From Patescibacteria group bacterium (GTDB lineage Bacteria; Patescibacteriota; Patescibacteriia; UBA9934), in contig JBAZXR010000001.1 of assembly GCA_041659765.1 (NCBI GenBank), positions 531,338 to 595,337 of the forward strand: 64,000 nucleotides of DNA, in the 5' to 3' direction. The position numbers were made by a program, and so were the translations under genes. Positions 6,020 through 58,230 of this stretch are shown here, piece after piece (within the stretch, counting starts at the first letter, position 1; each line of letters starts with the position of its first letter). The notes beneath the pieces were generated by a model, which worked only from the letters and a program-made list of their open reading frames with translations, did not search any database and was not told the DNA's origin.

Positions 6020-7990
6020 ATGTTTACCCGCTTTCTTCAAGCCATCATTTCCGCCGGTGCCGCCCTGGCTGTCTTTAGCATTCTAGCCACCGGAATGTAT
6101 TATGTCATGCCGGTAACAACCATCGGCCTGATTGTGTGTGCGGTGGCCGGCTCGGCGATCGTCGCCGTCATCCTGAGGAGCTCCGCGACGAAGGATCTGA
6201 TTGGCAGTGTCATCCCGATAACGGAGGGATCAGAACGGTTACCAATCAGATCCTTCGCTACGCTCAGGATGACTGCATTACTTTCAGTCTCCCTCCTCTC
6301 GCTCGGCCTCTGGTGGCACGCGGTGCTCACACATCCCATTCTCGAATCCGTACGGTCGCCGTGGCTGGTTATCAATTCGGCGAATTTGCTGTGGCTGTTT
6401 ATCCCGGCGGTTTGTGCGGCGGTTTTATTGATAGGAGGACGCGAGGACGGGGCGAGCCCCGTCCGTACAGCCGCGGGGTTCGGTGTAATCGTAATCACGT
6501 TATTTTCCGCGTTGTCATTTGCCGCTGCGGCATATCCCCTCGGTTTCGGTTTTGATCCGTTTCTGCATCGAGCGACCATCCAACATATCGCTGAGCATGG
6601 GACGATCACGCCGAAGCCGCTCTACTACATTGGCGAATATGTGATCGAATTGTTTGCGATGAAGGTGCTCCATTTGCCACTCATGTTGGTCGACGTATTC
6701 TTGGTGCCGCTCTTGGCGGCGACGTTGATTCCGGCGGCGGTGTTTTTGCGGGCGATACGCCAGGGCGGGGCAAGCCCCGCCCCTACCGCGGCGATTTTAT
6801 TATTTCTACCTATCGCCGCATTTGTCCAAACCACACCGCAGGCGTTGGCGTTCGTTTTTACAACGGTCGCGATATTGATCACGCAAAATACAAAAACCGA
6901 CAGCGGGGTTAAAAACCCCGCCTTCCCGATAATCCCATCGATCTTTGCCGTTGCGGCGCTGACCGCGCATCCGATTGCCGGACTCCTCGCCGTCTTCTTC
7001 GTCGTTTTGAATTTCTTGGCCGATAAGAAACGCGCGTGGTTCATCTGGACGTCCGTCTTGGCGACATTCGCCCTTCCCTTTGCATTTATTGCGCAGTCGT
7101 TCAAAGCACATCAGCCTTTTGGCATTCAAATCCCAGGGCTTCACGAAATTGCAGCCCTGCCCCTGTCCTCATTCTTTGGCACGCATTTCAACGCCTGGGG
7201 CGACACGGCGTATTTGGTGATCGGGAACATGTTCCTCGTCACGGTGACGATCGGGATTTTCGGTGCATGGCGAATGCACAAGGGGGCGCCGCAAGGGGCG
7301 TCCGTACGATGGATTCCCTTGATTTGCGCGGGGATTGCGTTTTCGAACTTCTTGATCTTGGGATTATTCTTTGAGTTCCCTTTCTTAATTTCGTACGAAC
7401 GGACGGATTTTGCGGCGCGGATGCTCACCCTGACGGTGTTGTTTTTGATGCCGTATATGCCGTACGCGATGACGCGTGCGAAGGGCGGGGCAAGCCCCGC
7501 CCTTACAGCGCGACGCGCGTTTGGTGTCGCCATTGTCGGCGTTGTATTTGTATCGTCGGTGTACGGCGCGTTCCCACGGTACGACGCATATGCATCTTCA
7601 GCGGGGTTCAATGTGACAAAGGCGGACTTTGACGCCGTTAAGGCCATCGAAGAATACGCCGCCGGACGGGATTACGTCGTTCTTGCGAACCAGGCCACAT
7701 CGTCCGCGGCCATCTCGACTCTCGGTTTCAAAAAATATTATCACGGCGACATCTACTTCTACCCTATCCCCACTGGCGGCCAGCTGTACCAACTCTATCT
7801 CGCCATGGCTGACAAACCGCGTGAAGCGATCATCGACAAAGCTCGTGCACTCACCGGCGCCCAACTGGTCTTCTTCGTCATGGACGATTATTGGTGGGAC
7901 TCCAAACGCGTCGTGGAACAAACAAAAACCATCACGGACATCACCTGGACCTTCGGCGACCACGAGGTGATGGTGATGGTGTTTGAGTAG
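6020..7990 (+). CDS. Large integral membrane protein of unknown function (about 14+ TM helices). Carries four in-frame palindromic micro-elements.
   Basis: 656-aa ORF, strongly hydrophobic, with a soluble C-terminal region. Function unknown; possibly envelope biogenesis or a GT-C-like protein. Confidence 0.7.
   Translation: MFTRFLQAIISAGAALAVFSILATGMYYVMPVTTIGLIVCAVAGSAIVAVILRSSATKDLIGSVIPITEGSERLPIRSFATLRMTALLSVSLLSLGLWWHAVLTHPILESVRSPWLVINSANLLWLFIPAVCAAVLLIGGREDGASPVRTAAGFGVIVITLFSALSFAAAAYPLGFGFDPFLHRATIQHIAEHGTITPKPLYYIGEYVIELFAMKVLHLPLMLVDVFLVPLLAATLIPAAVFLRAIRQGGASPAPTAAILLFLPIAAFVQTTPQALAFVFTTVAILITQNTKTDSGVKNPAFPIIPSIFAVAALTAHPIAGLLAVFFVVLNFLADKKRAWFIWTSVLATFALPFAFIAQSFKAHQPFGIQIPGLHEIAALPLSSFFGTHFNAWGDTAYLVIGNMFLVTVTIGIFGAWRMHKGAPQGASVRWIPLICAGIAFSNFLILGLFFEFPFLISYERTDFAARMLTLTVLFLMPYMPYAMTRAKGGASPALTARRAFGVAIVGVVFVSSVYGAFPRYDAYASSAGFNVTKADFDAVKAIEEYAAGRDYVVLANQATSSAAISTLGFKKYYHGDIYFYPIPTGGQLYQLYLAMADKPREAIIDKARALTGAQLVFFVMDDYWWDSKRVVEQTKTITDITWTFGDHEVMVMVFE
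6446..6470. repeat. Palindromic micro-element, family P1 (GGACGGGGCGAGCCCCGTCCGTACA), in-frame in the CDS at 6020..7990.
   Basis: Perfect palindrome GGACGGGGC-GAGCCCCGTCC. Same core plus the GTCCGTACA flank occurs at 23330..23354. Encodes DGASPVRT. Confidence 0.8.
6764..6783. repeat. Palindromic micro-element, family P1 (GGGCGGGGCAAGCCCCGCCC), in-frame in the CDS at 6020..7990.
   Basis: 20-bp perfect palindrome, identical to the copy at 7484..7503. Encodes GGASPAPT. Confidence 0.85.
6904..6922. repeat. Palindromic micro-element, P2 variant (GCGGGGTTAAAAACCCCGC), in-frame in the CDS at 6020..7990.
   Basis: Same stem as the P2 copies at 14921 and 36941 (GCGGGGTTAATAACCCCGC). Encodes SGVKNPA. 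Confidence 0.7.
7484..7503. repeat. Palindromic micro-element, family P1 (GGGCGGGGCAAGCCCCGCCC), in-frame in the CDS at 6020..7990.
   Basis: Identical to the copy at 6764..6783. Encodes GGASPALT. Confidence 0.85.
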
Positions 7991-8066
7991 GATGGATTGG
8001 TCCTGATCAGGATCCATCCTGAGCGCGAGCGAAGGATCAGACCCTCCCCTCCACCTCAGGAGAGCT
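7991..8066. repeat. Degenerate copy of an intergenic MITE/REP-like element (unit TCCATCCTGAGCGCGAGCGAAGGATC). Overlaps the 3' end of the GIY-YIG gene.
   Basis: Shares the unit with 8431..8455 and, in inverted orientation, with 57283..57311. Also contains the palindrome TCCTGATCAGGA. Confidence 0.7.
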
Positions 8067-8358
8067 CGACGAGCTTCTCAAACAGGTCTTCCCACTTCGG
8101 ATTCTTCGAGGTAACGAGCTCAGCCTTCCTCGCTCGGTTCCATCCCTTCAATTGTTTCTCTCGAAATAATGCCGTGTCTCGATCTGGAGTAGTTTCAAAA
8201 TAGACGAGCTTCACACAGTTATTCTTACTTGCAAATCCAGGCACGAGTTTATCTTTATGTTGCTGAATCCGTTCCGGCAATTGCGTGCTCATCCCAATAT
8301 ACAAAACATTGTTCGTTGGGCTCGCCATGATGTAGACGCCACATGAATCGTCATTCAT
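8056..8358 (-). CDS. Small GIY-YIG nuclease domain protein (URI/YhbQ-like).
   Basis: N-terminal GVYIMASPTNNVLYIGMS (GIY...YIG) and a conserved Glu region in a 100-aa ORF. Flanked on both sides by copies of the palindromic element. Confidence 0.8.
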   Translation of the reverse strand: MNDDSCGVYIMASPTNNVLYIGMSTQLPERIQQHKDKLVPGFASKNNCVKLVYFETTPDRDTALFREKQLKGWNRARKAELVTSKNPKWEDLFEKLVELS

Positions 8359-8377
8359 ACAATGCTTGGAGGTGAAA

Positions 8378-8533
8378 GTCTGACTCTTCGCTCTCGCTCA
8401 GAGTGGGGACCATGATAAATTCTCAAGCATTCCATCCTGAGCCATGCGAAGGATCAAACTTTCACCGGTGAGGGTCGGACTCTTCGCGCTCGCTCAGAGT
8501 GGAGACCGGAATAATTCGCAAGCGATCCATCCT
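8378..8533. repeat. Composite MITE/REP-like palindromic element. Contains a half arm (8382..8406), a full ~73-bp hairpin unit (8431..8503) and a truncated arm (8524..8533).
   Basis: Arms TCCATCCTGAGCCATGCGAAGGATC and GGACTCTTCGCGCTCGCTCAGAGTGGA are mutual inverted repeats. Homologous to 57239..57311 and 7991..8066. Confidence 0.8.
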
Positions 8534-9761
8534 ACCGCCCCACAATCATTCTCTCTTTCCGGTGCTTGATGGCTTCTGCACAAACACGCTCTAGTCGCTC
8601 TGCGTACTTCGGCAGCGAATAGTCGGCGACTGTTTTACTAGTCTCGTCGCGGCGCTGGGCGAATTCGTCCTTGCGTTGATCTAGGATTGTGAGCGCGCGC
8701 AAGAAGTCGCCTCGGTCGCCGGGGATAAACAGGAAGCCGTTTTTACCTTCCTCCACCAGTTCGCCCACGCCGCCAATTCTCGAAGCCAGAATCGGCAAAC
8801 CAGCCTGGAGGCCTTCGTAAATAACCGTTGGAGAATTCTCGTAACACAGGCTCGGCACGACGAGTGCGTCAACAACTCCAAACACGTTCACAATCTCCCC
8901 CGGCGGCATGTAACCCAAGTAAGTGATGCGTTCGTTTTCGCTGGCGTGCTTCTCTGTCCACTTTCTGAGCACCCCGTCACCCGCAATCATGAGGCGCGCA
9001 TCAATCGGCAAGGTCGAAATAGCGTCGACCAAAAAGGCTAGACCCTTATGCTGGGCGAGCTGGCCCACGAACAAAAGTTTCAGCGGTCCGCCAGAACGGC
9101 CTTTCTTTGGCGAAATATCATAGGTCGGTGCCGGGTTAGGCATCACCTCAATGTTAGTACCCGTGAAAAAGCCGGACCGGCGATACATGCGCTCAAGATA
9201 ATGCGACGGCGAAATAACGACGTCCGGATTCTTAAATTTAGCGCGACAAAAAAGCTGGTACACCTTATAGAACGGTTTAATGAACCACGGCGTCTGCTCT
9301 TTACCGAACATGACGAGGCCGGAGGGAACGATAAGCTGCAAATCGTGAATCACGTGCACATGCGGAATCTTCATCTGACGCATGACCTTCGGAATAGACA
9401 GGCCGAGTCCTTTTAGGTTATGCGTAATGACCACGTCCGGCTGTTCATTAACCATAACCTTGCGCACCACCTCCGCTCCATGTCCAGAGAAGCCGTCTAT
9501 TAGATGCCAAAATAATCTGATGAGCCACGGATATTTATAATCGTTCAACGTGAAGTACAAATTGCGCGGATAAAAACGATAAACACGCTCAACCGTTGAG
9601 CGATCCAAAATAATTCCCCTCCCTTCAGAGCGCGGCTGGCCGGTAATCACAAACACGTCATGTCCACGAGCCAGGAGTTCCTGGACCGTGCGAACAATGA
9701 CCGTTTCAGCTCCCCCGCGGGCGTGGGGCGGATAGAGATTTGTAATGATTCCTATCTTCAT
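8532..9761 (-). CDS. Glycosyltransferase family 4 (GT4).
   Basis: 409 aa. N-terminal MKIGIITNLYPPHARGGAETV and a C-terminal GT4 (GT-B) EX7E-like region. Confidence 0.8.
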   Translation of the reverse strand: MKIGIITNLYPPHARGGAETVIVRTVQELLARGHDVFVITGQPRSEGRGIILDRSTVERVYRFYPRNLYFTLNDYKYPWLIRLFWHLIDGFSGHGAEVVRKVMVNEQPDVVITHNLKGLGLSIPKVMRQMKIPHVHVIHDLQLIVPSGLVMFGKEQTPWFIKPFYKVYQLFCRAKFKNPDVVISPSHYLERMYRRSGFFTGTNIEVMPNPAPTYDISPKKGRSGGPLKLLFVGQLAQHKGLAFLVDAISTLPIDARLMIAGDGVLRKWTEKHASENERITYLGYMPPGEIVNVFGVVDALVVPSLCYENSPTVIYEGLQAGLPILASRIGGVGELVEEGKNGFLFIPGDRGDFLRALTILDQRKDEFAQRRDETSKTVADYSLPKYAERLERVCAEAIKHRKERMIVGR

Positions 9762-25537: not shown

Positions 25538-28500
25538 ATGAGAAAGCTGCTTCGTTCGGGATTCATAGCAACACTCTGTGTGCTCGCAACTACCCTGCCG
25601 GTGCGTGCGATAGAACAAGACAGTTCGCCGTTTATCGCATCCACACCAGTTCGTGTTGCTCCAGAAGACTCTTCGGGGTCTTTTTCATATTCCTATCCCA
25701 TCTCCGTTCCACCCGGACGCAATGCCATGCAGCCAAACATTTCGCTATCTTATAACAGCGGCGTCGCGGATGACGCTAGTATTACGGGCTACGGCTGGAG
25801 CCCCTCAATCCCAAAGATTGAGCGGGTCAACAAACGCGGGGTCGACAAGCTTTACAACAGACACGACTTCACTTCTTCGCTTGGCGGAGAGCTGGTCGAC
25901 GTATTGTTGTCCGATGGTTCGCACGGAACCTATGCGGTCAAAGTCGAAAATGGAAATTTCCTTACCTACGTTTACAACACGAACGAAACCTGGACGGTGA
26001 CGGACATGCTTGGCACGCAATACACCTTCGGCGGGAGCAGCAACTCGCGGGTCATTGACCCTGCCAACAGTTCTCACGTCTTCTCTTGGTACCTCACAGA
26101 AACTCGTGACACGAATGACAACGTCGTCACCTACTCATATTCCAGTACCAATAACCAGGTTTATCCGAGCAACATTAACTATACTGGACACGCCAACACT
26201 GCCGGTATTTTTGACATCGCCTTTACTCTGGAAGCAAGCTCGACCACAAACGAATCATTCGCCACGGGATTCTCTGTAAAAACCGGCCAGCGAATTTCCG
26301 CGATTACCGTAAAAGTGAATAATACAAATGTTCGTATCTACGACATTAACTATACGGTCGGAGACAACACCACCCGACCGCTTCTTTCAAGTATCACAGA
26401 GACCGGGATAGACGAGGCTAGCAACAGCATCACTAAACCCGCTACCACGTTTACATATTCCGCAAGCCACCGGACCTGGACGGAAGATACGACTGCCTCT
26501 ATTCCTATTGCCATAGCGGCAGGAGGCGCGTCTAGCATCGGCACGTTTGTCTTTGATGTAAATGGAGATTCGCTGCCAGACATCGTAAAATCATTAATAA
26601 TTGACAACGGCGGCACGCCCATCATTGAACGTGGAGTATATCTGAACGATGGAAATAACAACTGGGTAGAAGATGCAGGCTACACCATTCCAGTCTATTT
26701 CGCTGGTAATGGCTATGACCAAGGCGTGCGCATCGCCGATTTTAACGGTGACGGCTATCAGGACATTTTGAAAGCGCGGAGAGATCAGAACACCGGTGTT
26801 TTATACAGCGAAGTCTATATCAACGATGGCGATGGAACTGGGTGGACCCAAGATACTACAGTTGTCATTCCTACAGCCTTTGATAACTCAACAAGGATTT
26901 TTGATGTGAACGGAGATGGTCTTCCTGATATTGTCTATGGACGAATGAATCAATGGACAGCTGCGATCGAGAGCGAGTTCTACATCAACAATGGCGACGG
27001 AACTGGCTGGACCCTGGATGGAAATTATGTACTGCCGATAAACATTTCCACTGAAAAGGGAAAAGATGCGGCGTTCCGAACGGCCGACGTCAACGGCGAT
27101 GGGTTAACAGACCTCCTGCAAGCCGTATCAACAACCAACGAGGTCTATATCAATAAGGGGAACGGAACTGGGTGGATCAAAAACACCAGCTACGTCATTC
27201 CCGCAACCTTCCTCGCGACAGGAAAAGATACCGGCACGCGGCTTCTTGATATTAACGGAGATGGTCTCACGGACGTCTTCCACTCTCGTCTTGACTCAAC
27301 AGGAAACCCTGAAAGCAACCTCTACATCAACCGGGGAGGAGAGGAGGGATGGGTTGAAGATACAAACTTTCAAGGAGCGCCGGTCGCCATGACTACCAGC
27401 GCTGGCGCTGACCGTGGCGTCCGAGAAGATAATTTCTCTGGATCGATGTTGACGGACTTCATGCACTCCGTTAGAACCGGAACGCCCGAGGTTCTCTATA
27501 CCTACCTGTTCGTCCAAGACGGAGGCAGGGGCGATCTTCTAACTAGCGTCTCATCAACAAGCGGAGCGACGACAGATGTAGCCTACACCTCTTCCACCGT
27601 TCCCAACCCCTCACTTCCTTTCTCTCTTCAAGTTGTCGATACCATCACGACGGATGACGGATTCGGGAATGTTTCAACGCAATCTTATACATACGAAAAT
27701 GGTTCATTTTACTACAACAATGAATACGACAGAAAGTTCGCTGGGTTCGGAAAAGTAACGACAACGGACGGGCTTGGAAATGTGACGATTAGCTATTACC
27801 ATCAGGGAAATACTTCGGACTCCGCTCATGGCGAAGCAACGGATGACGTCAGCAAGCTCCTACATCGCTATCGCGAAGAACAATACGACAGTAATGGAAA
27901 CCTCTATCGCACGACAATTGACACGTGGGTTAATACTGACATCGGAAATGGCAGAGACTTTGTCTACAAAACGCAGACACTGGTCATGGACTACGATGGT
28001 GATGCCGATCACCGGGATACTGCCGTTCGGTATACATACAATACGAACAACGGAAACCTCGTTGAGAAAATCGAGTATGGTCTTGGCACTGGAAACGATA
28101 ACGGATCCTTTACGGATTCTGGCACGGATGATCGGACGACTGCCTACGCCTACGCGCAGTGGACGAGCGGTGAATCCGGCTACCTGGCCTCCGAAACGCT
28201 CACGGATCATGTCATTGACACCATTCGCCGAACTACCAGGTTCTATGACGGGAACACGACTAACGCCGTAAGCATTGGCAACGTTACGCGAGAGGTGAAA
28301 AAGATTTCGGCTACTGAAAATGCGGAAACAAACTTCGCCTATGACGCGTATGGTTTCCGTACGGCAGTGATTGATGCAAATGGCAATACTACAACCATTA
28401 CTCCCGACGCAGTGGAACTCTATCCGGCGAGCGTCACAAACGATCTCAGTCAAGTCACTGAGTACGTCTATGATTACTCGTCAGGCAAGGTTATAGAGAC

Positions 28501-31210
28501 CACGGATGCGAACGGCTTCATCAGCCAGACGGTGCTGGACGGATTCGATCGTCCTATCACAGAAAAGAAACCAAATCCGTCATCGCCGGCGTCACTCTTG
28601 AACGTTCGCACGTTCTCATATGACGACGTAAGTTTCCCTTCTTCGATCCATGAATCAGACCTGTTCGACGGTTTAATACAGAAAGAAACCTACACGTATT
28701 TTGACGGTTTCAGCCGGCCAGTGCAGACCCGCGAAGAAGCGGCCAGCAGCTACAGCGTGATCGACACCGCGTATGACGAACGTGGAGATGTGAAGAAGGC
28801 CTCCCTTCCCTATTCTTCTGCCGGCTCAGGCCACACGAGCCCAACCACTACCGTCGCGCTCTACGAGACTTACGCCCGTGACGCACTACATCGTCTCACC
28901 AGCAAAACAAATGCTGCAGGAAGCACCGTCACGAGTTACGACGAAGGTATTTCAACAGAAACAGACGCGGAAAATAACACCAAGAAATATCACTGGGATG
29001 GTTTCGGTCGGCTCGAGAGTGTCATTGAAGTCATCGATGCGACCGAGCTCGAAACGTCTTACGAGTACGATGCTGCCGGAAATCTTACCGGACTAACAGA
29101 CGCGGAAAATAACATTCGCACGTTTGCATACAACGGCCTTGGCAACCGGACTGCGATGACTGATCTCCACGCAAGCGGCGATATTTATTTTGGCGAATGG
29201 AGCTACGGTTTCGATCCCCTGGGCAACATGATTCAAGCCGTGAGCCCGAACGGTGTCACCACTACCTACGCGTACGACGAGCTCAATCGCCTTAAAACAG
29301 AAAACGCCTCCGGCACTAGCGGCACAGACCTCACGTACACCTATGATTCCTGCACGAACGGTGTTGGCAAGCGTTGCTCCGCTGCGGTTCTGGGAGGCGC
29401 AACCACCGCCTACACGTATGACGCGTTGGGACGCACGGCGACTGAAGTAAAAACCATCAGCGGCATTGGCTACACCACCGCCTACGCGTACGATCGCCAG
29501 AACAACGTGTCGACCGTCACCTACCCAGACACCAGCACGGCAACCTACGCGCTCAATAGCGCCGGGCAGATTACTTCTGCAGCGTTCGATGACGTTCACG
29601 GAGCTCCCGTCACCGAAGTCAGCAGCATTACCTACGGTCCGCACGGCAAAGTGACGGCAGCTACTTACGGCAACGGAGTTACTTCCACCTGGAGCTATGA
29701 TGCAGCAGAGCTCTATCGCCTCCAGAACAAGACCACCACGTCAGGCACGAATGGCATCGAAAACTTCATCTACGGTTATGATAACGTAGGCAATCTTGCA
29801 ACACTCGCAGACGCTTCATCGCTCTACGGCAGCCTGGCCATCACCTACGGCTACGATGACCTCTACCGCCTCACGGGTGCCGACTCCGTCAGCGCAGACA
29901 GTGCGCTCGACTACACAAAAACCTGGTCCTACACGGACATTGGCAACATTGTCTCTTCCTCAGACAAGGGTTCTTATACGTACGGCGGCACAGCCTCCGG
30001 CAACTACGCCAACCCTCACGCCCCTACTCACATTGGCAGCAGCACCACGCTGACGTACGACTACAATGGCAACATGACCGGTGACGGGACGTGGACAAAT
30101 ACTTGGGATCATCGGAATCAGCTTCTCACTTCAGTAGACGGAACAACGACGGTCACTTATCAGTACGACGACGCTGGTAACCGTGTGGTCCAGGATGGCT
30201 CGGGTGCGACCAGAATCTATCCGAATTCGTATTACTCCGTAGACGGATCCAACGTCGATCGCAACATTCTCGTCGGCGCCCTCGGCTCCGTAGCCACCTC
30301 AAACTGGAATGGTACAGTCGACAGCATCACCTACCATCACACTGACCACCTCGGTGGAACCCATATTGAAACCAACGAAAACGGGGCTACGGTTGAGTAC
30401 ATCATCTATTCTCCATTCGGTGGAACGCTCGTTGACGTAAAAACCGGAGCGTATGAGAACAAAAACAAATACACAGGAAAAGAAAAGGATATAGATACAG
30501 GTTGGTATTATTACGGTGCACGTTATTACAATGCGGAGAATGGAGTATTCTTGAGTGAGGACCCGGTGTTCTTGAACATGGGAACTTCGAATCATGAGTC
30601 CGAACAGAAACGTGTACTTACAGATCCTCAGCTTGGCAACAGTTACGCATACGCACGTGAGAATCCAATCACATATGTGGACCCCAACGGAGAGTTCATC
30701 CCTGTACTGGTGGCCGGACTTCTAGCAATGGCTCCTGAGATCGCTACAACGAGTGCGATCATAGCGAGTGGCGTTGGAGTTGCGGTCTTGGGCAACGCCC
30801 TAGACGTCGCCAGAAATCCGAATTCAAGCATGGTCGAGAGGCTGATGGCTGGAGCAGACGTAGCGGGCATAATTACCCCGTTTGGTGCGACCGAAAGACT
30901 CGGCACCCAAGGCTTCAGATCATTCACCGCATTCAAACGATTTGCCGGAGCGGCGGGCGAAGGACGGCAATGGCACCATATCGTCGAACAAAGTGCATCT
31001 AATATTGAACGATTTGGAGGGCAGGCAATCCACAGTACAGACAACCTCATCAGTCTTCCAAAAGAAATCCATCAACAAGTCAGTGGATATTATTCTTCAA
31101 AAATTCCTGAACTAACCGGAAATCAAACGGTTCGAGAGTGGCTCAGGCCACAATCCTTCGAAAAACAGGTAGAATTCGGCAAACGGATGCTCGATAAATT
31201 CACCAAGTAA
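25538..31210 (+). CDS. RHS/YD-repeat polymorphic toxin, 1890 aa. Architecture: signal peptide, SpvB-like N-domain, FG-GAP/integrin-like repeats, YD repeats, an RHS core ending YAYARENPITYVDPNGE, then a C-terminal WHH-type HNH nuclease toxin tip.
   Basis: SFSYSYPISVPPGRNAMQPNISLSYNS...GYGWS (SpvB); repeated FDVNGDGLPDIV; many YDxxGN YD repeats; tip contains GRQWHHIVEQ...N...H. Confidence 0.85.
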   Translation: MRKLLRSGFIATLCVLATTLPVRAIEQDSSPFIASTPVRVAPEDSSGSFSYSYPISVPPGRNAMQPNISLSYNSGVADDASITGYGWSPSIPKIERVNKRGVDKLYNRHDFTSSLGGELVDVLLSDGSHGTYAVKVENGNFLTYVYNTNETWTVTDMLGTQYTFGGSSNSRVIDPANSSHVFSWYLTETRDTNDNVVTYSYSSTNNQVYPSNINYTGHANTAGIFDIAFTLEASSTTNESFATGFSVKTGQRISAITVKVNNTNVRIYDINYTVGDNTTRPLLSSITETGIDEASNSITKPATTFTYSASHRTWTEDTTASIPIAIAAGGASSIGTFVFDVNGDSLPDIVKSLIIDNGGTPIIERGVYLNDGNNNWVEDAGYTIPVYFAGNGYDQGVRIADFNGDGYQDILKARRDQNTGVLYSEVYINDGDGTGWTQDTTVVIPTAFDNSTRIFDVNGDGLPDIVYGRMNQWTAAIESEFYINNGDGTGWTLDGNYVLPINISTEKGKDAAFRTADVNGDGLTDLLQAVSTTNEVYINKGNGTGWIKNTSYVIPATFLATGKDTGTRLLDINGDGLTDVFHSRLDSTGNPESNLYINRGGEEGWVEDTNFQGAPVAMTTSAGADRGVREDNFSGSMLTDFMHSVRTGTPEVLYTYLFVQDGGRGDLLTSVSSTSGATTDVAYTSSTVPNPSLPFSLQVVDTITTDDGFGNVSTQSYTYENGSFYYNNEYDRKFAGFGKVTTTDGLGNVTISYYHQGNTSDSAHGEATDDVSKLLHRYREEQYDSNGNLYRTTIDTWVNTDIGNGRDFVYKTQTLVMDYDGDADHRDTAVRYTYNTNNGNLVEKIEYGLGTGNDNGSFTDSGTDDRTTAYAYAQWTSGESGYLASETLTDHVIDTIRRTTRFYDGNTTNAVSIGNVTREVKKISATENAETNFAYDAYGFRTAVIDANGNTTTITPDAVELYPASVTNDLSQVTEYVYDYSSGKVIETTDANGFISQTVLDGFDRPITEKKPNPSSPASLLNVRTFSYDDVSFPSSIHESDLFDGLIQKETYTYFDGFSRPVQTREEAASSYSVIDTAYDERGDVKKASLPYSSAGSGHTSPTTTVALYETYARDALHRLTSKTNAAGSTVTSYDEGISTETDAENNTKKYHWDGFGRLESVIEVIDATELETSYEYDAAGNLTGLTDAENNIRTFAYNGLGNRTAMTDLHASGDIYFGEWSYGFDPLGNMIQAVSPNGVTTTYAYDELNRLKTENASGTSGTDLTYTYDSCTNGVGKRCSAAVLGGATTAYTYDALGRTATEVKTISGIGYTTAYAYDRQNNVSTVTYPDTSTATYALNSAGQITSAAFDDVHGAPVTEVSSITYGPHGKVTAATYGNGVTSTWSYDAAELYRLQNKTTTSGTNGIENFIYGYDNVGNLATLADASSLYGSLAITYGYDDLYRLTGADSVSADSALDYTKTWSYTDIGNIVSSSDKGSYTYGGTASGNYANPHAPTHIGSSTTLTYDYNGNMTGDGTWTNTWDHRNQLLTSVDGTTTVTYQYDDAGNRVVQDGSGATRIYPNSYYSVDGSNVDRNILVGALGSVATSNWNGTVDSITYHHTDHLGGTHIETNENGATVEYIIYSPFGGTLVDVKTGAYENKNKYTGKEKDIDTGWYYYGARYYNAENGVFLSEDPVFLNMGTSNHESEQKRVLTDPQLGNSYAYARENPITYVDPNGEFIPVLVAGLLAMAPEIATTSAIIASGVGVAVLGNALDVARNPNSSMVERLMAGADVAGIITPFGATERLGTQGFRSFTAFKRFAGAAGEGRQWHHIVEQSASNIERFGGQAIHSTDNLISLPKEIHQQVSGYYSSKIPELTGNQTVREWLRPQSFEKQVEFGKRMLDKFTK

Positions 31211-31639: not shown

Positions 31640-32220
31640 TCTACCTCCTCACAAATGCCGACTCCGTCAGCGCAGACAGTGCGCTCGACTACACAAAAAC
31701 CTGGTCCTACACGGGCATTGGCAACATTGCCTCTTCCTCAGATAAGGGTTCTTATACGTACGGCGGCACAGCCTCCGGCAACTACGCCAACCCTCACGCC
31801 CCTACTCACATTGGCAGCAGCACCACGCTGACGTACGACTACAATGGCAACATGACCGGTGACGGGACGTGGACAAATACTTGGGATCATCGGAATCAGC
31901 TTCTCACTTCAGTAGACGGAACAACGACGGTCACTTATCAGTACGACGATGCCGGTAGTCGTGTTCTTCGGGACGGCTCGGGTGCAGCGAGAATCTATCC
32001 GAACTCTTATTACTCGGTAGACGGCACGAATGTTGATCGCAACATCCTCGTCGGCGCTCTCGGATCCGTCGCAACATCGACTTGGAACGCTTCTACTGCC
32101 ACGACCATCTACCATCACACGGACCACTTTGGTGGAACACACGTCGAAACGGATGAGAACGGTGATGCAATCGAATACAACATCTACTCCCCCAACCCAA
32201 AATCGCTTGAAAATGAGTAA
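31640..32220 (+). pseudogene. Orphan RHS core fragment. It duplicates main-gene region 29860..30420, has no start codon at the homology boundary and carries only a 9-aa tip.
   Basis: About 330 bp are near-identical to the main RHS, then diverge. Ends EYNIYSPNPKSLENE*. The in-frame ORF 31852..32220 begins at an internal Met. Confidence 0.75.
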
Positions 32221-56095: not shown

Positions 56096-56127
56096 GTTTA
56101 TCTGTAATGTTCAATGTTGAATGTGTA

Positions 56128-57228
56128 ATGTACGATACCTCTACTATGGATTTCGCTTCGGCAATTGCCGTGAAAAGACAAGAATTTCAGAAGCTTGAAC
56201 AGGCCCTCATGGACCCGGCTGTTTTGGCTGACCGTAAAAAGTTGAAGGAAACCAACCAGGCTTACCAGGGCATGCGCAAAACCATGGAAGCTGCGGCGGC
56301 CTACGAGAAAGTCGCAAATGACCTCGATGGCGCAAAGAAGACCCTCCATGATACGGATCCAGACATGCGAGCAATGGCAGAGGCCGAAGTCGCAGAACTA
56401 GAACCTAAGTTGCCCGCACTTGAACGTACCCTCGAACTTGAACTCGTGCCAAAAGACCCAATTGACGAGAACGACGCTATTGTGGAAATCCGTGCTGGCG
56501 CAGGAGGAGATGAAGCTGCACTTTTTGCATCTGAACTTTTCCGCATGTATGTGCGCTATGCAGAACGCCACGGCTGGAAGGCGAGCGTTATCTCTCAGAG
56601 CCAGAGCGACTTGGGCGGTTTCAAAGAGGTAATCTTCGAGATCGGGGGTCCAGGTGCATACGGTACAATGAAACTTGAAAGTGGAGTTCATCGCGTACAG
56701 CGCGTGCCGGATACGGAGAAAGCTGGTCGAGTTCACACCTCAACAATTACCGTCGCCGTTCTTCCTAAACTTGAGGAGGAAGACTTCGAGCTCAATCCGA
56801 AGGACCTCACCATCGAAGCGACCACGTCGCAGGGAGCTGGCGGACAGAGCGTGAACACCACATATTCCGCATGTCGCATTGTCCACGTGCCAACGGGTCT
56901 CACGGTGCACTGTCAGGACGAACGTTCGTTCTCCCAGAACCGCGAACGTGCCTTATCGGTTCTCCGCGCCCGTGTGTATGCCGCCGAGCAGGAAAAGAAG
57001 CGTGCCGCCCTGGAAGCCGAACGCCGAGGACAGATTGGAACGGGTGATCGATCGGAGAAAATCCGCACATATAACTTTCCTCAGGACCGCATTACCGACC
57101 ACCGTCTGAAGCAGTCATGGCACGGCCTTCCAGGAATCATGGACGGAGATATTGAGGATATTATCGAAGCCCTCCGTCTGGCCAGCCGAGATGAGAAGTT
57201 TGGAGCGATTATCGAGGATGAAGAGTAA
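56128..57228 (+). CDS. prfA: Peptide chain release factor 1. The start is uncertain (56107, 56128 or 56146).
   Basis: [11 protein letters not shown]...[20 protein letters not shown] (GGQ motif); PxT-type RF1 decoding region. Confidence 0.9.
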
Positions 57229-57238
57229 TCAGGACGTC

Positions 57239-57311
57239 TCCACTCTGAGCCATGCGAAGAGTCCGACCCTCAGAGGGGAAAGTCGGATCCTTCGCTCTCG
57301 CTCAGGATGGA
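57239..57311. repeat. Solo MITE/REP-like palindromic element (~28-bp imperfect inverted arms, 14-nt loop) lying between prfA and prmC.
   Basis: TCCACTCTGAGCCATGCGAAGAGTCCGAC-cctcagaggggaaa-GTCGGATCCTTCGCTCTCGCTCAGGATGGA. Homologous to the units at 8431..8503 and 8013..8038. Confidence 0.85.
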
Positions 57312-58230
57312 GACACTCGATCACATGACCATCTTCGAAGCACTAACGGTTGGTGCTGACAGACTCAAATCGACTCAGCACGAAAAACTACAGGCGCCGG
57401 GGAGCCCCAAGCTCGACGCGCAAGTTTTGCTTTCGTTTGTGCTCGGCAAACCATCGAGCTATCTGTTTGCACATGGAGACGATGCTGTCGATGCGCCCGC
57501 ACTCGACCGGTACCTCGCATTCATCGAACGGCGCATAACGCATGAACCGATTGCGTACATCACGGGCGAAAAAGAATTCTTCAAGCGTCCATTCATCGTG
57601 ACACCGGCAACATTAATCCCTCGACCCGACACGGAGGTTCTCGTCGAAGAAGCATTGAAGGCCGCTAAGCCAGACTCGGTCTTTCTCGACATCGGCACGG
57701 GCAGCGGTGCGATCGCAATTACGCTCGCAGCAGAATCTTCGAGCGGGGTCTTCGCGACGGACATTTCAGCCGAGGCACTCGACGTTGCAGTGCGTAATGC
57801 AAACAAACTCGGCGTTGCTGACCGTGTCATATTCCTGCATGGCGACCTGCTTAAACCATTCATCGAGAAGCTCAGAGAATGGAAAGATAAGGCTAGTATT
57901 CCTTCCCTCATTATCACGGCAAATCTTCCCTACATCGCCCGCCGACAATACGAAGGGCTAGACCCAGACGTGCTCAACTTTGAACCAAAAAGCGCGCTCC
58001 TCGCAGGAATTGACGGGCTTGATCTCTACGATCAATTGCTCGACGAACTCTACGAATCACGCGCTCTTTTCCCAGCCGACCTTCAATTACTTATCGAGAT
58101 CGATCCCTCGCAAGCATTTTCTGCCGAACGCTTGATCAAACACTACTTCCCGAAAGCGTCGATCTCACTTATTGCTGATTTGTCACGTCAACCGCGGGTG
58201 CTTTTGGCTGTGATTCCGACACGTTCTTAA
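57307..58230 (+). CDS. prmC: Release factor glutamine methyltransferase (PrmC/HemK). The annotated ATG lies inside the repeat arm; the true start may be MTIFEAL at 57325.
   Basis: IAYITGEKEFFKRPFIVTPATLIPRPDTE, DIGTGSGAIAI and NLPY (an NPPY variant). Confidence 0.8.
   Translation: METLDHMTIFEALTVGADRLKSTQHEKLQAPGSPKLDAQVLLSFVLGKPSSYLFAHGDDAVDAPALDRYLAFIERRITHEPIAYITGEKEFFKRPFIVTPATLIPRPDTEVLVEEALKAAKPDSVFLDIGTGSGAIAITLAAESSSGVFATDISAEALDVAVRNANKLGVADRVIFLHGDLLKPFIEKLREWKDKASIPSLIITANLPYIARRQYEGLDPDVLNFEPKSALLAGIDGLDLYDQLLDELYESRALFPADLQLLIEIDPSQAFSAERLIKHYFPKASISLIADLSRQPRVLLAVIPTRS

Follow-up and report, generated by a model that had tools for sequence, protein, structure and literature searches.

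We analysed a 64,000-nucleotide stretch of the genome of a Patescibacteria group bacterium (positions 531,338 to 595,337 of contig JBAZXR010000001.1, assembly GCA_041659765.1; hereafter the window), in which a small gene for a nuclease of the GIY-YIG type is bracketed by hairpin repeats. The gene lies at 8056..8358 on the minus strand, and encodes a single-domain protein of 100 amino acids; the window contains no other GIY-YIG gene. Based on Pfam and a family alignment, we call it ssn-like, after the Ssn nucleases described by Chenal et al. (2025, Nat Commun; PMC11893778), whose repeats are called NTS in Neisseria and Ssn-related motifs (SRM) generally. A first-pass annotation made from the letters alone had reported that the gene is flanked by repeat copies, and we found these copies where it had placed them. 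On the 3' side of the gene, a unit at 8010..8053 (plus strand) has the core TCC-ATCCT-GAGCGCGAGCGA-AGGAT-C at 8013-8038 (TCCATCCTGAGCGCGAGCGAAGGATC), followed by a tail of ~15 nt. On the 5' side, a unit at 8367..8407 (minus strand) has the core CCC-ACTCT-GAGCGAGAGCGA-AGAGT-C at 8382-8407 (GACTCTTCGCTCTCGCTCAGAGTGG at 8382-8406), with GGTC directly 5' of the CCC and the tail at 8367-8381. Both units turn their heads away from the gene, and read in the direction of ssn the order is head-hairpin-tail, ssn, tail-hairpin-head, with the heads outward at both ends. A 40-nt inverted repeat that is 80% complementary encloses ssn (8014-8053 / 8367-8406). In dinucleotide-preserving shuffles of the window, the expected number of matches per arm pattern was 0.00, even with up to 3 mismatches allowed.

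Further upstream of the gene, a spacer (8408..8430, unstranded) leads to a gene-less tail-to-tail dimer at 8431..8503, which consists of a unit at 8431-8455 (plus strand, ATCCT/AGGAT; TCCATCCTGAGCCATGCGAAGGATC) and a unit at 8478-8503 (minus strand, ACTCT/AGAGT; GACTCTTCGCGCTCGCTCAGAGTGG at 8478-8502). The arms GACTCTTCGC.CTCGCTCAGAGTGG are present both at 8382-8406 and at 8478-8502. The dimer is followed at 8504..8533 (plus strand) by a second spacer (8504-8523) and an incomplete unit start, ATCCATCCT (8524-8533), which overlaps the stop codon of a glycosyltransferase gene (8532..9761). The two spacers resemble each other and jointly give a tandem period of ~96 nt (direct repeats spaced 95-96 nt). 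On the other side, an open reading frame (ORF) for a 656-residue multi-pass membrane protein (6020..7990, plus strand) adjoins the locus. Its stop codon is abutted by an unstranded stretch at 7991..8012 that contains GGATGGA (the reverse complement of the unit head) and the small palindrome TCCTGATCAGGA; this stretch, which differs in the related locus L084 described below, is probably the remnant of an additional inverted unit. The neighbours of ssn are cell-envelope glycosylation genes, and we found no sigma-70-like promoter around ssn. A second gene-less tail-to-tail dimer is present at 57239..57311, between prfA (56107..57228) and prmC (57307..58230), with units at 57239-57263 (plus strand, ACTCT stem, CGTC before it) and 57286-57311 (minus strand, ATCCT stem, TGTC before it). 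The gene-less dimers have the same layout as the repeats at ssn, minus the gene. The first ATG of the prmC-like ORF (57307) falls in the reverse-complement head of this dimer (GGATGGAGA), and translation may instead begin at the ATG at 57325 (MTIFEAL...). At gathering thresholds, no Rfam family matched anywhere in the whole window.

The first-pass annotation had interpreted the repeat as a long-hairpin element of ~75 bp, with a degenerate copy on the 3' side of the gene. We found instead that the "75-bp long hairpin" is made of two self-complementary units of ~25 nt arranged tail to tail, and that the 3' side carries one intact unit. According to the folds, each unit is built from a 3-nt head, a 5-bp stem, a tandem G.A/A.G, 2 bp, a loop of 3-4 nt, a C after the stem and a tail of ~14 nt, so that two of the nine stem positions per unit are the G.A/A.G tandem. 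Two unit types occur in the window, with ATCCT/AGGAT and ACTCT/AGAGT stems, and each gene-less dimer combines one ATCCT unit with one ACTCT unit. Three of the six units at ssn and prfA have a stem that starts with AT and three a stem that starts with AC; the C after the stem is present in all six. Where the long arms mismatch (GGATC vs GAGTC), the difference is a compensatory double change inside each small unit. Because the change from ATCCT/AGGAT to ACTCT/AGAGT is paired within units, the functional unit appears to be the ~25-nt hairpin and not the ~75-nt one. We had considered the conserved C.A/U.G "mismatches" of the long hairpin as a recognition feature, and we dropped this candidate when they turned out to be these compensatory changes within the small units. 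Heterodimer pairing would weaken the long hairpin, which may leave the small hairpins exposed and prevent a perfect palindrome of great length. As single-stranded DNA (ssDNA), the dimer at 8426-8509 folds with -12.7 kcal/mol (z -0.4) and the prfA-prmC dimer has a minimum free energy of -22.4 kcal/mol (z -4.6).

In the protein encoded by 8056..8358, the Pfam GIY-YIG domain (PF01541, E=1.2e-15) covers residues 6-78 and is the sole Pfam family matched. Its homologs are 92-113 aa long, and its size and one-domain build are those of the Ssn family, whose members have about 94-100 aa and nothing extra. In an alignment of 29 sequences, the invariant residues of the family (including Y9, Y20, G22, R30, H34, E67 and N86) are all kept. 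The spacing of Y9, Y20 and E67 (11 and 47 residues) equals that of Y6, Y17 and E64 in SsnA of Neisseria meningitidis (NMV_0044/NMB0047; 94 aa, single GIY-YIG domain, CDD cd10448), where these three residues were mutated and are essential for catalysis (PMC11893778). A 94-aa Gallionella protein that is 51% identical to the 8056..8358 protein (E=6e-33) has Y6/Y17/E64, and the exact NTS consensus, CGTCATTCCCGCGAAAGCGGGAATCCAG, flanks its gene. Searching the PDB sequences with the 8056..8358 protein, we found no solved relative at E <= 0.01. In NCBIfam there were only sub-threshold matches to the GIY motif of ~30 residues (UvrC, intron endonucleases, DEDD-fusion proteins), with a TIGR01453 score of 17.9 bits vs a cut-off of 56, and PADLOC gave only weak motif-level matches (UzuA / PDC-S14).

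We compared 80 homolog loci, whose proteins are 43-57% identical and which come from Firmicutes, Proteobacteria, Acidobacteriota, Chloroflexota, Cyanobacteria, Actinobacteria, Planctomycetota, Patescibacteria and other phyla. At each locus, the upstream flank was aligned with the reverse complement of the downstream flank, and pairs of flanks from different loci served as control (95th percentile 31). The flank inverted-repeat score was above the control 95th percentile at 40 of 78 loci, and this control is conservative because repeat families are common to different loci. We then counted units by a structural definition (GTC, a 5-nt stem, a 3-35-nt loop, the complementary stem and C; pointing outward within 150 nt of the gene), which was adopted after the published SRM pattern failed in the window and for which the opposite orientation and distant flanks served as controls. 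Outward units were found upstream of the gene at 51/78 loci, downstream at 47/79, on both sides at 34/77 and on at least one side at 65/80, as compared to a background density, over both strands and at distances above 500 nt from the gene, of 0.56 units per kb. Among the 111 units next to the genes, 18 different 5-nt stems occur (ATTCC, ATCCT, ATTCT, ATCCC, ATTGC, ATGCT and others), every one together with its complement, which amounts to extensive covariation for a small hairpin, and their heads are conserved as T/C-GTC. Most homologs are flanked by single units, not dimers. In the Patescibacteria homologs P0004, P0005, P0008 and P0014, units of the form ATCCTGA[G/A]...GAAGGATC are present on both flanks. 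The association of the small GIY-YIG gene with this palindromic repeat is real, as the first-pass annotation had suggested, and general; it is not new, since it was published in 2025 with at least one SRM at 71% of homolog loci and SRM on both sides at 42% (PMC11893778). The database gene models of the Ssn homologs P0079, P0100, P0106 and P0120 extend into the flanking repeats, which gives these models artefactual terminal peptides (MCHPRLDRGS..., ...DPSAAKGAASG, MSLRASAHTGVAIRIP... and ...DLSTTLEMTDSDSI).

When we scanned metagenomes for the window-type unit, we obtained 82 matches in 80 loci (505 kb), and most were solo copies. An Ssn-like gene was present in 3 of the 80 unit-bearing loci and was within 100 nt of a unit in two of them. 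This predominance of solo units is consistent with a repeat family with one gene per genome and adds little power. The refuting condition that the first-pass annotation had set, copies elsewhere that are never adjacent to GIY-YIG genes, is uninformative, as most copies are expected to be solo, just as they are for repetitive extragenic palindromes (REPs) and their REP-associated tyrosine transposases (RAYTs).

To follow the locus through evolution, we used a syntenic ortholog on metagenome contig L084, whose protein is 93-94% identical and whose neighbours are as in the window (glycosyltransferase and membrane-protein genes), with one unit on each side of ssn. Between the two ssn genes, the ratio of nonsynonymous to synonymous substitution rates (dN/dS) is 0.026, the proportion of synonymous differences (pS) is 0.65, dS is about 1.5 (saturated), and third codon positions are 60% identical. 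The core on the 5' side, CCACTCTGAGCGAGAGCGAAGAGTC, is identical at 25/25 positions in L084 and the core on the 3' side at 25/26. Since the cores are conserved despite saturated synonymous sites, gene and repeat cores are both constrained or homogenised. The purifying selection on the gene, together with the conserved cores in a syntenic ortholog, indicates that the cassette has been at its present position for long and is resident rather than recently mobile. The first-pass annotation had proposed a mobile mini-cassette; the layout does resemble that of an insertion sequence (IS), with the gene-less dimers as candidate miniature derivatives, but movement is not borne out by a cassette that is syntenic in L084 at this synonymous distance.

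The repeats themselves vary between loci. As compared to L084, the window has about 90-96 extra nt that correspond to one further pair of units and a duplicated spacer. A homolog that is 81% identical (P0002, locus L081) has a GT2 gene on one side and a RIO1 kinase gene on the other, and its units and a solo dimer are found upstream only. At 10309-10312 of L081, the 3' end of ssn overlaps the end of the convergent RIO1 kinase gene, with no downstream unit. On metagenome contig Ga0172379_10000458 (L094), a dimer at 465-540 is 95% identical to window positions 57236-57311, and the rest of this 3.5-kb locus has no megablast match to the window; the genes on either side of the dimer are unrelated, and it is situated about 1 kb upstream of an ORF for a PilB/GspE-like ATPase. 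A target-site duplication was not definable from the window/L084 alignment or from the intragenic insert described next, which are too diverged or rearranged. The repeats turn over, and transposition of the cassette is not demonstrated by these polymorphisms.

The copies listed by the first-pass annotation are all present, and its inventory was incomplete, as it lacked the dimer at 57239-57311 and three units within ORF 6020..7990. These three are canonical GTC-headed units at 6167-6197 (plus strand), 6209-6231 (plus strand) and 6249-6273 (minus strand), and they stand in frame, translating as VILRSSATKDLIGSVIPITEGSERLPIRSFATLRMT within the multi-pass membrane protein. The orthologs P0123 and P0125 have no insert at 6167-6273, and P0122 and P0124 have a different, shorter repeat-derived insert there; this in-frame presence and absence resembles the Rickettsia palindromic elements. 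The same ORF also contains a second palindrome, GGGCGGGGCAAGCCCCGCCC followed by YTAC, at 6446-6470, 6764-6788 and 7484-7508, and another copy is found at about 23334. Read as the reverse complement, the GGGCGGGGCAAGCCCCGCCC repeat has GTAG/GTAA/GTAC followed by a hairpin and is GTAG-tagged REP-like. Its three in-frame copies read G(G)ASPxxTA, and the first one is missing from P0123 and P0125. Elsewhere in the window, identical 21-mers (GTCAGCGCAGACAGTGCGCTC) at 29888-29908 and 31666-31686, 1.8 kb apart, lie one within and one just past an ORF for a 1890-aa RHS/SpvB/TcdB-like toxin (25538..31210), and this pair may reflect a duplicated toxin tip or orphan module.

We consider it highly probable, on the basis of these sequence comparisons, that the locus is a member of the Ssn/SRM system and that its repeats are cognate Ssn-related motifs of the class of REPs tagged with CGTC. 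The pairing of gene and repeats, the small-hairpin unit, the outward orientation, the conservation of the catalytic residues and the selection on gene and cores are established here. Several observations weigh against this assignment. The published SRM pattern, HGTCWYN(0-2)YYVSBRHN(0-5)WNVSBRGN(0-2)RNCYNB, has 0 matches in the window and matches 13/80 homolog loci, although it detected the canonical NTS control. Directly 5' of the stem, the six units at ssn and prfA read YCC and not GTC; [C/T/G]GTC is found 3 nt farther out in 4/6 of them and is absent in 2/6, and in close Patescibacteria relatives the heads are ACC, CAG and AAG. As ssDNA, the small units have folding energies of -2.7 to -4.4 kcal/mol with z about 0 and are thermodynamically unexceptional; it is the comparative data that support the small unit. 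The placement in the Ssn family is drawn from the Gallionella homolog, the catalytic residues and the flanking units, and its support from homology is indirect, by way of the Gallionella protein. That the protein cleaves, and on which strand and where, are predictions from the published enzymology of four homologs, and its role in this host is likewise a prediction. The SRM pattern, for which its authors report a coverage of 71% of loci, is a search tool tuned to a CCCGCG-type stem and not a strict definition, and its failure on the repeats of the window shows that these are a variant.

In N. meningitidis, SsnA binds the hairpin as ssDNA only, with cleavage a few nt 5' of the head; the enzyme does not bind RNA, is inactive on double-stranded DNA, RNA and the reverse strand, and lowers transformation by NTS-containing DNA; binding depends most on the C after the stem and cutting most on the three bases 5' of the stem (PMC11893778). 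Three other Ssn homologs cleave their own repeats, which makes four characterised enzymes in all (PMC11893778). By analogy, each unit in the window would fold into a small hairpin when the DNA is single-stranded, as in incoming transforming DNA, the lagging-strand template or repair intermediates. The nuclease would bind the strand that reads head-stem-loop-stem-C and cut it a few nt 5' of the head, and would leave duplex DNA, RNA and the opposite strand alone. Because the units that flank the gene, and those in the dimers, point outward, the cuts would fall just outside the cassette or dimer and on opposite strands at the two ends, so that any single strand would receive one cut per cassette, which differs from IS200/IS605, where both ends are on the same strand. 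The likely consequence, as in Neisseria, would be that repeat-bearing ssDNA is fragmented and that recombination or transformation is modulated. The role here could be restriction of incoming ssDNA, as in Neisseria, or propagation of the repeats. In a stronger version of the latter, Ssn would be the missing mobilising enzyme of CGTC-type REPs, a GIY-YIG counterpart of the RAYTs that seeds or copies units and dimers over the genome, including in frame into membrane-protein loops, and whose specificity has drifted in this Patescibacteria lineage to a new head, with GTC displaced by 3 nt or replaced. We find this stronger version rather unlikely, and the facts compatible with it are the presence/absence polymorphisms, the near-identical dimers in unrelated contexts and the differing loci of close homologs.

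Closest to that version is the explanation that the locus is an active IS-like element, with the GIY-YIG protein as transposase and the gene-less dimers as derivatives that are still spreading, like MITEs (miniature transposable elements with inverted repeats) or the doublets of REPs known as REPINs. The outward terminal inverted units have the look of IS ends, a likeness also remarked by the authors of the Ssn study, who compared NTS-ssnA-NTS to an insertion sequence and suggested domestication (PMC11893778). No other transposase for CGTC-type REPs is known (PMC3733652). The gene-less dimers are tail to tail too, with tails similar to those beside ssn, and the polymorphisms (about 96 nt relative to L084, and the in-frame insert relative to P0123/P0125), the 81%-identical homolog in a different gene context and the 95%-identical dimer in an unrelated context of another genome are what a spreading element would leave. 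Against this stand the synteny of the cassette with that of a relative at a saturated synonymous distance and the strong purifying selection, a pattern of residence or domestication, as well as the single gene copy in 64 kb and the polymorphic sites, at which no target-site duplication or insertion target can be read. The ends, which would be cleavable on opposite strands with one cut per single strand, are unlike those of IS200/IS605. To our knowledge, neither a covalent intermediate nor strand transfer has been described for Ssn or any other GIY-YIG enzyme. Given this balance, we doubt that the locus is an active element of this kind.

If the repeats instead act as RNA, as REP hairpins that stabilise or attenuate transcripts between co-directional genes, the nuclease gene would be a mere neighbour. 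The RNA folds are very stable: 57233-57317 reaches -48 kcal/mol (z -6.4), and the dimer next to ssn reaches -33 kcal/mol (z -2.4). The dimers do lie between co-directional genes (prfA-prmC; the glycosyltransferase gene and then ssn), and transcription likely reads through into ssn, as we found no sigma-70-like promoter around it. However, such a role leaves the association with one gene family across many phyla unexplained, most homologs have single units and not dimers beside them, the dimers are not followed by a T-tract, Rfam has no match, and SsnA does not bind RNA (PMC11893778). We therefore think this account improbable, and an RNA effect could exist alongside a role in DNA. Least credible of all is that the gene encodes a free-standing GIY-YIG homing endonuclease or a component of anti-phage defence that landed in a repeat hotspot by chance. 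GIY-YIG domains occur in both, and a group I intron endonuclease model as well as PADLOC UzuA / PDC-S14 gave weak partial matches, but these are confined to the GIY motif of ~30 residues and are far under the cut-offs, the 100-aa, one-domain protein has no DNA-binding extension, and the genes around it are for cell-envelope glycosylation. The repeats that flank 65/80 homolog loci exclude chance, and the flank alignments and structural-unit counts effectively refute this reading.

Since the pairing was already described and biochemically explained in 2025, the main value of membership in the Ssn/SRM system, our preferred reading, is a correct classification. What is added is that Ssn/SRM is present and under purifying selection in a genome of the Patescibacteria (candidate phyla radiation, CPR). 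The SRM pattern misses repeats of the present type and the majority of those in this protein sub-clade, so surveys based on it undercount. In SsnA the head controls cleavage, and its displacement or replacement in this lineage makes it a natural test case for the co-evolution of Ssn and repeat specificity, and the in-frame copies in the membrane-protein gene and the 96-nt polymorphism bear on whether Ssn enzymes spread repeats.

Compared to known systems, the locus is most like Ssn/SRM, with which it shares a small single-domain GIY-YIG gene bracketed by inverted hairpin repeats, an asymmetric head, the C that follows the stem, many additional copies elsewhere in the genome, solo or as dimers, and an identical Tyr/Tyr/Glu spacing. 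It differs from the published members in its host, in a core of the CTGAGC...GCGAAG type (5-bp stem, tandem G.A, 2 bp) in place of ATTCCCGCG...GCGGGAAT, and in a GTC tag that is displaced by the 3-nt YCC insert or absent. The second relative is the class of CGTC-tagged REPs of Di Nocera et al. (2013, BMC Genomics; PMC3733652), which includes Neisseria dRS3 and Rickettsia RPE-4/RPE-6 and whose definition comprises CGTC/TGTC as head, a stem of 8-9 bp that begins with AT, and a tail that contains a C; these REPs are mostly inverted dimers, often heterodimers, some are intragenic, and they "apparently lack a dedicated transposase", no associated enzyme being known at the time. The three units at 6167-6273 match this class fully and both gene-less dimers share its inverted heterodimers, whereas at ssn and prfA the stem is directly preceded by YCC in all six units and begins with AC (ACTCT) in half of them. 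In the literature on GIY-YIG enzymes with MITE, REP, RAYT or REPIN, we found nothing besides these two studies (PMC11893778 and PMC3733652). GIY-YIG homing endonucleases (I-TevI, Seg proteins) share the catalytic domain and the flavour of a selfish element, but they have more than 200 aa and separate DNA-binding modules, cut duplex DNA and have no hairpin-repeat flanks, and the 8056..8358 protein has one domain in 100 aa. REP/REPIN sequences with their RAYTs offer the closest parallel in organisation: there too, a single-copy, vertically inherited nuclease gene is flanked by hairpins that are scattered over the genome, often as inverted dimers, and the enzyme recognises the hairpin in ssDNA. 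The gene associated with the repeats here is of the GIY-YIG fold, unlike the RAYTs, which are derived from IS200/IS605 (HUH-Y1), and the heads are YCC or GTC, with CGTC as the head tag where that of REPs with RAYTs is GTAG.

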